From NCBI GenBank assembly GCA_965237955.1, contig OZ250169.1, positions 1,728,001-1,792,000 on the forward strand: a stretch of 64,000 nt of DNA, given 5' to 3'. Shown here piece after piece: positions 54,346 through 55,856 of this stretch. This DNA comes from Candidatus Marinacidobacterales bacterium. GTDB lineage: Bacteria > Acidobacteriota > Vicinamibacteria > Marinacidobacterales > SMYC01. Made by a program: the position numbers and the translations under genes. Each line of letters opens with the position of its first letter. Positions within the stretch are counted from its first letter, which is position 1. Below the pieces are notes generated by a model. The model was not told the origin of the DNA. It saw only the letters and a program-made list of their open reading frames with translations, and searched no databases.

Positions 54346-54567
54346 ATCCGACGTTTCACAGCCGATGGGCCTACGATACTTTGAGAAAAGGTGGGCGATA
54401 CTACTAGTGCCGGTCCAACTATATGGACCGAAAACCGGTGTCGCTCCGGAACGACACGCCGTTCCATTGGGCGTCGACGTTCTTAGGCGGAACAAGTTGG
54501 AACGGCACTAGTCCCATGGAACAGAAAAAGATAGACAACACCGGCCCTTCTGTGATCTGCTAAATGC

Positions 54568-55809
54568 ATGAAACACAAGGGCCGGCGAAAAGCCGAATTG
54601 AAGCTGTCGTCTCAAGAAAGCGAAGCGCTGACGCGACTGGCGCGACGCAGCCGTAGTTCGCCGCACCAAGCCTTCCGAGCGAAGATCGTGCTGGATTGCG
54701 CGGCGGGTCTGACGAATATGGAAGTTGCTAGCCCCCTGGATCTTTGATTACTATACAAAGTTAGGCTTTTCGCCAGCCCATAAGATTCATAAGATTCATG
54801 CACTTAGAATGGTTTCGGCAAGCTCTGCTTTATCTAGTTTGTTCTGATACAGGGGACTAGGAAGATGCACACCATGAGGAGCACGGTGGGCAAGTGGCGA
54901 AGACGCTTTGTAGAACAACGAATGGAAGGGTTGTACGACGAACCTCGGCCGGGAGCGGCTCGCAAAATCGGCGATGACCAGATCGAGGAAGTCCTGACCA
55001 AGACGCTGGAGACGACTCCAAAGGGGAGAACCCATTGGAGTACGCGCTCGATGGCCAAGCATCTTGGGCTGAGTCATTCGACGATTGGACGTATTTGGCG
55101 AACGTTCGGGCTTCAACCGCACCGCTCGGAATCGTTTCGTCTCTCGCAAGACCCACAACTGGTCGAAAAAGTACGCGACGTTGTTGGCCTGTATATGAAC
55201 CCACCGGATAACGCGGTCGTCCTGTGCGTCGACGAGAAATCGCAGATTCAAGCGCTCGAGCGTGCTCAACCTGTCCTGCCCATGAGCTTGGGCCAGCCCG
55301 AGCGACAAACCCACGACTACATTCGGCATGGAACGACTGACCTGTTTGCCGCACTCGACGCCGCAACAGGTGAAGTCTTCGGAAAGTGCTACGCGCGACA
55401 TCGAGCGCTAGAGTTCAAGAAGTTCCTCGCTGAGATCGAAGCAGCCGTTCCCAGCGAGTTGGACATCCACGTCGTGCTCGACAATCTCGCCACGCACAAG
55501 ACACCGGCGATCAAACGCTGGCTTTCCAAGCGACCTCGGTTCCACTTTCACTTCACACCGACACACGCCTCTTGGCTCAACTTCGCTGAGCGCTTCTTTG
55601 GCTTGCTCACCGAACACGCCTTGCGACGAGGCTCGCACACGAGCGTGCCTCAGCTCCGCGCTGCGATACAAGACTATCTCGATGCTCACAACGAGAACCC
55701 AAAGCCGTTCAAGTGGACGAAATCCGCCGACCAAATCCTCGAAACCATCGCTCGGTTCGCCCAGCGAACGCTCGATACACATGGCAAATCGAATTTGGAC
55801 AGTAATTAA
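54568..55809 (+). pseudogene. IS630 transposase split by MITE copy C
   Basis: [65 protein letters not shown] inside the MITE. Confidence 0.92.
54728..54860 (-). mobile_element. 133-bp IS630-type MITE, copy C (inside the IS630 transposase)
   Basis: Reverse complement of copies A/B, flanked by CTAG. Confidence 0.93.
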
Positions 55810-55856
55810 AGATCAAGGGGACTAGGCTCCTAATGATCTCGGATCGGGGTTAGAGC

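Follow-up and report, generated by a model that had tools for sequence, protein, structure and literature searches.

A CTAG-inserted MITE within an IS630-family element with similar ends in a Candidatus Marinacidobacterales genome

The nested locus

The window analysed here is a 64,000-nucleotide stretch of DNA (G000:C1:1728001-1792000) from a Candidatus Marinacidobacterales genome (G000) of 8.13 Mb, assembled as a single contig with 60% GC. It contains an IS630-family insertion sequence (IS) interrupted by a MITE, hereafter MITE-A. The features of the locus are as follows, in window coordinates:

54508..55825, forward strand: IS630-family element including both CTAG boundaries (1189 bp when uninterrupted)
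54511-55822, forward strand: IS630 element proper, if TA is the duplication
54508..54599, forward strand: left end of the IS with the first transposase codons, homologous to MITE positions 1-91
54568..54747, forward strand: 5' transposase fragment (54 native and 5 MITE-derived residues, then stop)
54728..54860, reverse strand: MITE-A, 133 nt including both CTAG (net 129 bp), at IS position 221-224
54865..55809, forward strand: 3' transposase fragment, 314 aa from native Met57 (predicted ORF)
55793..55825, forward strand: right end of the IS, homologous to the last 32-33 nt of the MITE

The original prediction, an IS630 split by a reversed MITE at an internal CTAG, was borne out: the IS ends are bounded by CTAG and the insert runs for 133 nt from CTAG to CTAG. 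Compared with a natural uninterrupted copy, the IS part to its left agreed at 220/220 bases and the part to its right at 966/969, and the uninterrupted copy carries a single 370-aa ORF reading ...NMEVARKMHT..., exactly the reading expected from removal of 129 bp. The 59-aa 5' fragment had no Pfam match. The 314-aa 3' fragment matched PF13358 and PF13565 as well as the IS630 model NF033545 (266.6 bits, cut-off 100); it retains the second HTH together with the DDE domain and has lost the N-terminal 56 aa. No sigma-70-like promoter site was found in 54450-55900, and cover by RNA data (one run, contigs only) was low and patchy.

The same internal CTAG is also occupied by a MITE in another IS copy (G000:C1:4856-6173), where the MITE points the other way. 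The MITE-in-IS junction was not found among the sequencing-run pieces listed, so it rests on the single-contig assembly and on this second, oppositely oriented case. In contigs from runs X2 and X5, which belong to two other studies, position 54506 is followed by 55821 (a skip of 1314), so that they represent the IS-free site with one CTAG; the IS insertion at 54508-55825 is therefore recent and polymorphic.

Upstream of the IS lies clpB (51593-54199), followed at 54200-54400 by a short repeated fragment resembling the start of an IS5-type transposase. The IS ends 31 bp before an ORF for a GH99-like glycoside hydrolase (55857-57266), and a DUF4388-DnaJ protein is encoded at 57967-59277.

The resident IS630 family

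The resident IS630 was found at 44 loci in G000 (43 left-end matches and one right-only fragment), 99.4-100% identical to one another. Full-length uninterrupted copies numbered 38, and the 370-aa ORF was intact in 34 of them. The transposase scored 282.2 bits with NF033545 (cut-off 100), with the IS481, IS3 and IS21 models below their own cut-offs, and its domains were PF13358 (DDE_3), HTH_28/29/23 and HTH_32. Residues D179, D262 and E298, which we take to be the DDE triad from their position in the motif, have a last spacing of 35 (DD35E). The element has terminal inverted repeats: in the reference copy, 11 of the first 13 nt are shared by the left end and the reverse-complemented right end. 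By analogy with ISY100, the IS would move by cut-and-paste. Its closest relatives among the matches listed were 79-80% identical in amino acids, with one partial match at 93%; the only other IS630 matches in G000 were 4 copies of one family, 26-42% identical in amino acids and with different ends.

The IS load of G000 is heavy: about 35 IS256-like and more than 50 IS5-like elements were seen, together with about 50 copies of a 1.7-kb element (window 5820-7540 and 30700-32424) that is presumably ISL3-like, as we read its protein.

Terminal positions were hypervariable, both in the IS (positions 5-10 and 1180-1185: 6/12 sites, vs 33/1169) and in MITE-A (positions 5-10 and 124-129: 8/12 sites, vs 30/113). 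A small set of end alleles is found repeatedly, at either end of IS and MITE and also in distant sisters. End conversion, hot-spot mutation or sequencing error might account for this; nine ends compared by eye gave no pattern of templating by the target. The MITE copy at the present locus differs by one base from the right terminal repeat quoted in the original prediction, which was the consensus, and the letters quoted there for the right end of the IS are a private variant of this IS copy. The anatomy given in the original prediction was right.

The MITE-A family

Besides the nested copy, the window holds the following members of the family:

20108..20369, forward strand: two MITE-A copies in tandem sharing one CTAG
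59367..59499, forward strand: MITE-A copy
62816..62948, forward strand: MITE-A copy, its site empty in run X2

At the last of these, an X2 contig connects 62819 with 62985 through flank-like sequence, representing an empty MITE-A site. Across G000, 118 copies of at least 100 nt were found by BLAST: 109 of 133 nt, five of 124 nt that lack a 9-bp duplication, and four of other lengths. Mean pairwise difference was 2.1% (112 copies aligned). MITE-A is non-coding, with stops in all six frames; the net lengths of 129 and 120 bp are multiples of three, yet every frame is closed. The RNA fold pairs the ends (z -4.4), and three loci holding MITE-A had no Rfam match. The family has the properties of a MITE: it is short and multi-copy, carries no transposase, and has terminal inverted repeats, empty sites and ends like those of a resident autonomous element.

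Five junctions of MITE-A with IS ends (G000:C1:4360960, 4414800, 7615377, 7626197 and 974794) are all inverted, four tail-to-tail and one head-to-head, and both MITE-MITE pairs are direct tandems. A second MITE family of about 166 bp is present in 15 copies (G000:C1:1421392-1421557 and 14 more loci); its long terminal repeats start like IS630 ends and it has the same CTAG target. Diverged relatives of this second family lie at 2559500 and 5357716-5359332.

Target site and duplication

CTAG stood on both sides of 111/118 MITE-A copies and 37/38 full IS copies, on a background of 8099 CTAG among the 172697 TA sites of G000. For the MITE insertion in the window, 41 IS copies show the homologous site empty, with a single CTAG. 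An empty-like homologue was available for 42/156 insertions, most of them with one CTAG (three MITE rows had other letters only), and the few homologous empty sites without CTAG read CTGG, CTTG or CTAC.

Elements bounded by CTAG whose empty sites hold a single CTAG are compatible with a TA duplication (the element then ending G...C) or with a 4-bp CTAG duplication. A single related MITE has CTAG on one side and CTAA on the other, its inner ends being intact, and this one case favours TA duplication over the 4-bp alternative. IS630 reportedly prefers CTAG, to go by the title of a 1991 paper by Tenzen and Ohtsubo. TA duplication and cut-and-paste transposition are described for IS630 and ISY100 in the accessible text of a published study (PMC2170065).

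With a home-made gene caller, MITE insertions were depleted inside ORFs (42/109 vs 4059/7770 CTAG, p=0.005), and 13/109 lay at stop codons vs 537/7770 CTAG (p=0.055); a targeting of stop codons was rejected.

Origin of MITE-A

The left end of MITE-A matched that of the IS at 66/100 positions (64/91 for the natural 124-bp variant) and the right end at 27/32; with the terminal repeat excluded, the match was 33/41 (positions 51-91). The left homology spans the IS start codon and about ten transposase codons, so that the match to both IS ends, transposase start included, was as originally claimed. The end similarity is far above chance: in 3000 dinucleotide shuffles, none reached the left score, the right score or the terminal-repeat-free score. 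As a control, the same MITE segment was compared with the IS interior, and the score was reached by 430/500 shuffles.

The composition of the MITE (91 nt of a left end with the first codons plus 32-33 nt of a right end, at about 70% identity) supports its proposed status as a deletion derivative of a sister IS630, the exact parent of which was not found. The deletion junction would lie at a 6-bp word that occurs twice in the IS, at 87-92 and at 1154-1159; because 6.5% of random pairs match in this way, deletion at such microhomology is only suggestive.

Direct derivation from the resident 1189-bp IS was rejected, as near-identity of the ends is absent: MITE and resident IS agree at 64-67/91 positions on the left and 25/29 on the right, the IS copies themselves being 99.4% or more identical. 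At about 70% identity, MITE-A therefore does not stem from the present IS burst. Also rejected as parent was a 1.6-kb element with MITE-like ends (G000:C1:5357716-5359332), a multi-copy element nested in another MITE and, as we take its protein to indicate, IS256-like.

Two metagenome sisters of the resident IS, L051 and L052 (80% identical in amino acids), match MITE positions 5-19 at 15/15, compared with 12-13/15 for the resident IS, and L052 matches the MITE right end at 26/29. Over the start-codon region they agree with the MITE at 20/41 positions, the resident IS at 33/41. A further sister, 88% identical to the resident IS, is present as a broken copy in genome G012 and as pieces in G012 and G015; run X5 contains it in abundance, there without this internal CTAG. 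In a tree of 25 loci the resident IS groups with L051/L052 (support 87/60). The original prediction had also proposed a search for an intact transposase with MITE-identical ends; no IS630 matching MITE-A throughout was found among about 110 loci aligned (at least 79 metagenome loci, with 80 of 562 relatives retained, and loci of the relatives from the order).

These comparisons suggest that MITE-A likely derives from a sister or an ancestor of the resident IS clade. Since the tips fit L051/L052 best and positions 51-91 fit the resident IS best, no single parent is demonstrated. The same split would be expected of a mosaic whose tips were exchanged or had converged among several sister IS630s, instead of a one-parent deletion, with the same mobilisation in trans; the repeated use of a few end alleles by IS and MITE alike, at either end, against differing backgrounds and also among distant sisters, likewise fits a mosaic. 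An unsampled parent between the lineages would explain the pattern equally, the tip differences amount to just 2-3 bases, and the tree places the resident IS together with L051/L052 (with the weak support given above), so that we consider a mosaic rather unlikely and prefer derivation from one sister or ancestral element.

Orphan left and right ends like those of the L051/L052 sister IS630 were seen in G000 (C1:5805252, 4099904, 7466461 and 7122933). With no such transposase in G000, they are traces of an earlier invader.

Proposed mobilisation in trans and effect on the helper

The explanation that we favour, with a probability of roughly 0.85, is that MITE-A is an old deletion derivative of a sister IS630, that it is likely moved in trans by the resident transposase into CTAG, and that it likely entered this IS copy by chance. 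An internal deletion in a sister IS630 long ago would have joined about 91 nt of the left end, with the transposase start, to about 33 nt of the right end; the 9-bp duplication of the resulting non-coding MITE is a later change. The resident IS630 transposase would have cut and pasted this MITE into CTAG sites and, on the model of IS630 and ISY100, duplicated TA. To judge from other genomes, MITE-A may have reached 118 copies in G000 because its cognate helper is abundant there. Insertion into the IS was possible because the IS itself contains CTAG, and the MITE would have landed in this copy by chance.

Sequence comparison points to the resident transposase as the probable enzyme acting in trans: the resident IS630 is the only element in G000 with matching ends and target. 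Both interrupted IS copies differ from intact copies at 2-4 bases (99.5% or more identical), and the MITE therefore moved during the IS burst.

Another transposase might move MITE-A, namely that of the second IS630 family, a 4-bp CTAG-duplicating IS5-type enzyme, or an IS630 subfamily in the relatives that is 40-42% identical. Seven relatives hold 2-15 MITE matches, some of them at unshared sites, with no intact cognate transposase found, and an IS5-like MITE that duplicates CTAG is described in the available part of the literature (PMC3189936). The MITE ends in G000 nevertheless resemble the resident IS630 only, copies in the relatives are more diverged (5-6%), and the remnants of the 88% sister in G012 and G015 show that a cognate helper passed through; a different enzyme thus appears improbable.

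It was also considered that MITE-A might target its own transposase gene and act as a brake on the IS630 burst, a question raised for RUP. Two independent insertions occurred at the same internal CTAG, with none at the second, and five junctions with IS ends were found where 1.3 were expected (P=0.01; P=0.15 counting non-genic CTAGs only). Against this, two internal hits are at chance level, the expectation being 0.66 for one site and 1.28 for both internal CTAGs (P=0.14-0.37). Preferential insertion in IS or repeats was ruled out, since 39/118 MITE copies and 227/700 sampled background CTAG lie in repeated DNA (p=0.92), and 34 intact transposase genes remain. A brake is accordingly very improbable. 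The claim that the MITE inactivated a potential helper is literally true and carries little weight, with 34/38 full-length copies intact: given chance-level hits, no enrichment in repeats and the intact genes, the loss of 2/44 helpers is a side effect and not a control mechanism.

Distribution among genomes of the order

Full-length MITE-A was found in 7/54 other genomes of the order, from five genera and two families (5/18, 2/8 and 0/28 genomes by family). The best identity to the window copy in these relatives was 93-97%; clpB DNA was 75-78% identical in 4/5 genomes tested, the fifth being without a full-length hit. Among the 32-40 candidates scored per genome, the seven relatives yielded no intact cognate transposase; other IS630 subfamilies were present. 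The right-end pattern occurred in 0/400 genomes elsewhere in the class or phylum, and viral contigs gave 0 matches to the internal MITE pattern. A collection scan returned at least 29 loci from 7 records, all of them Candidatus Marinacidobacterales MAGs; these loci probably overlap the genomes already counted and hence add no independent support.

Genome G008 carries a MITE identical to a rare two-copy haplotype of G000; the site is the same, and the block around it spans 1325 bp with 99.1% identity between the two genomes. In six 20-kb stretches taken from G015 and G008, many scattered blocks are shared with G000 (84-99.9% identity, up to 12 kb), which makes the MITE one item in a broad gene flow. 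In all, 11/25 foreign full-length copies stand at a site that is also filled in another genome, one such site in both orientations, and 13/25 foreign copies lie in repeats vs 39/118 local ones, which is no significant enrichment (p=0.11). About half of the foreign copies have flanks without a match in G000, so passenger transfer does not explain all copies. The copies in other genomes nevertheless suggest that MITE-A travels from genus to genus within blocks of horizontally transferred DNA, a passenger route visible in one case.

Within the shared 1.3-kb carrier block, the three ORFs around the MITE had no Pfam match, and the block had no Rfam match. Inverted copies of a sequence flank it (L184:3080-3157 and 4483-4561; G000:C1:2925579-2927060); they look like group II intron domains V-VI and gave no Rfam hit. 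A 12-kb block (G015:C1:591738-603683 vs G000:C1:1147865-1159797), 99.5-99.9% identical between two genera and only one among many such blocks, holds DUF350, spermidine synthase-like and amine oxidase genes and a copy of the second IS630 family.

All the genomes are metagenome-assembled, and G000 is listed with 6.2% contamination. Assembly or binning of co-occurring genomes could in principle have produced the cross-genus sharing as an artefact, and identity as high as that of the 12-kb block between G015 and G000 would fit such an origin. The shared blocks are, however, short; they lie at many scattered positions in G000, and their identity is graded, ranging between 84 and 99.9%; the foreign MITEs have their own haplotypes, both orientations and flanks absent from G000, and several genomes are in 1-4 contigs. 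We therefore regard an artefact as improbable.

Taken with the preferred origin and mobilisation, the distribution allows a wider and tentative reading, to which we give slightly less than an even chance: the MITE family would travel as a passenger among the genera and families of one order, would lie nearly dormant or be cross-mobilised by 40%-identical IS630s where the cognate helper is absent, and would bloom to more than 100 copies where it meets a sister, non-parental transposase. If true, this would be a natural experiment in helper switching and in horizontal transfer of MITEs.

Relation to known systems

No published work on this element was found in the open literature searched (subscription journals and ISfinder lay outside its scope), and the sources below are cited for what their accessible text states. 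MITEs have been described as deletion derivatives moved in trans, and have been found inside ISs (PMC3189936, PMC10969869). It has been suggested in print that MITEs, by inserting preferentially into IS genes, keep the number of transposases down; the counts obtained here say no. The present case is of value as a clean data set, in which the target is strict, 34 helpers are intact and empty sites can be counted by the dozen.

According to the text available of a census of prokaryotic MITEs, 97-98% of clusters are genus-restricted and a minority cross genus limits (bioRxiv 10.1101/2024.01.18.576219); spread across families is therefore uncommon, though not unprecedented. MITE-A belongs to the genus-crossing exceptions, with a visible passenger route in one case. 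An identical MITE in a shared block shows a likely way for a non-autonomous element to cross the genus limit that holds for most prokaryotic MITEs, and sharing across genera is a warning not to take MITEs as markers of a genus where gene flow in a community is heavy.

The resident IS resembles IS630 of Shigella sonnei and ISY100 in its DD35E transposase, N-terminal HTHs, terminal inverted repeats and TA target, as far as these are set out in the accessible text (PMC2170065). Unlike either, it is a distinct element whose closest relatives found are 79-80% identical in amino acids, one partial match reaching 93%.

MITEPsy1 of Pseudomonas syringae is, in the part of the report available, a 100-nt MITE that inserts at CTAG and occurs inside IS copies (PMC3189936). 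It differs from MITE-A in being assigned to IS5, in its 4-nt duplication, in hitting the IS of another family and in having had its mobility shown by experiment.

The nearest parallel is RUP with IS630-Spn1: the accessible accounts describe about 100-130 bp, more than 100 copies, IS630-like terminal repeats and a proposed mobilisation in trans (PMC2229807, PMC3049150). By description, MITE-A shares with it the size, the copy number, a TA-containing target, the ends of a resident IS630 and insertions that inactivate IS transposase genes, so that the nested arrangement is the same and the element is of an ordinary kind. MITE-A differs from RUP in its almost strict CTAG target, its 91-nt homology reaching into the transposase start, its lack of preference for the IS and a family that spans five other genera.
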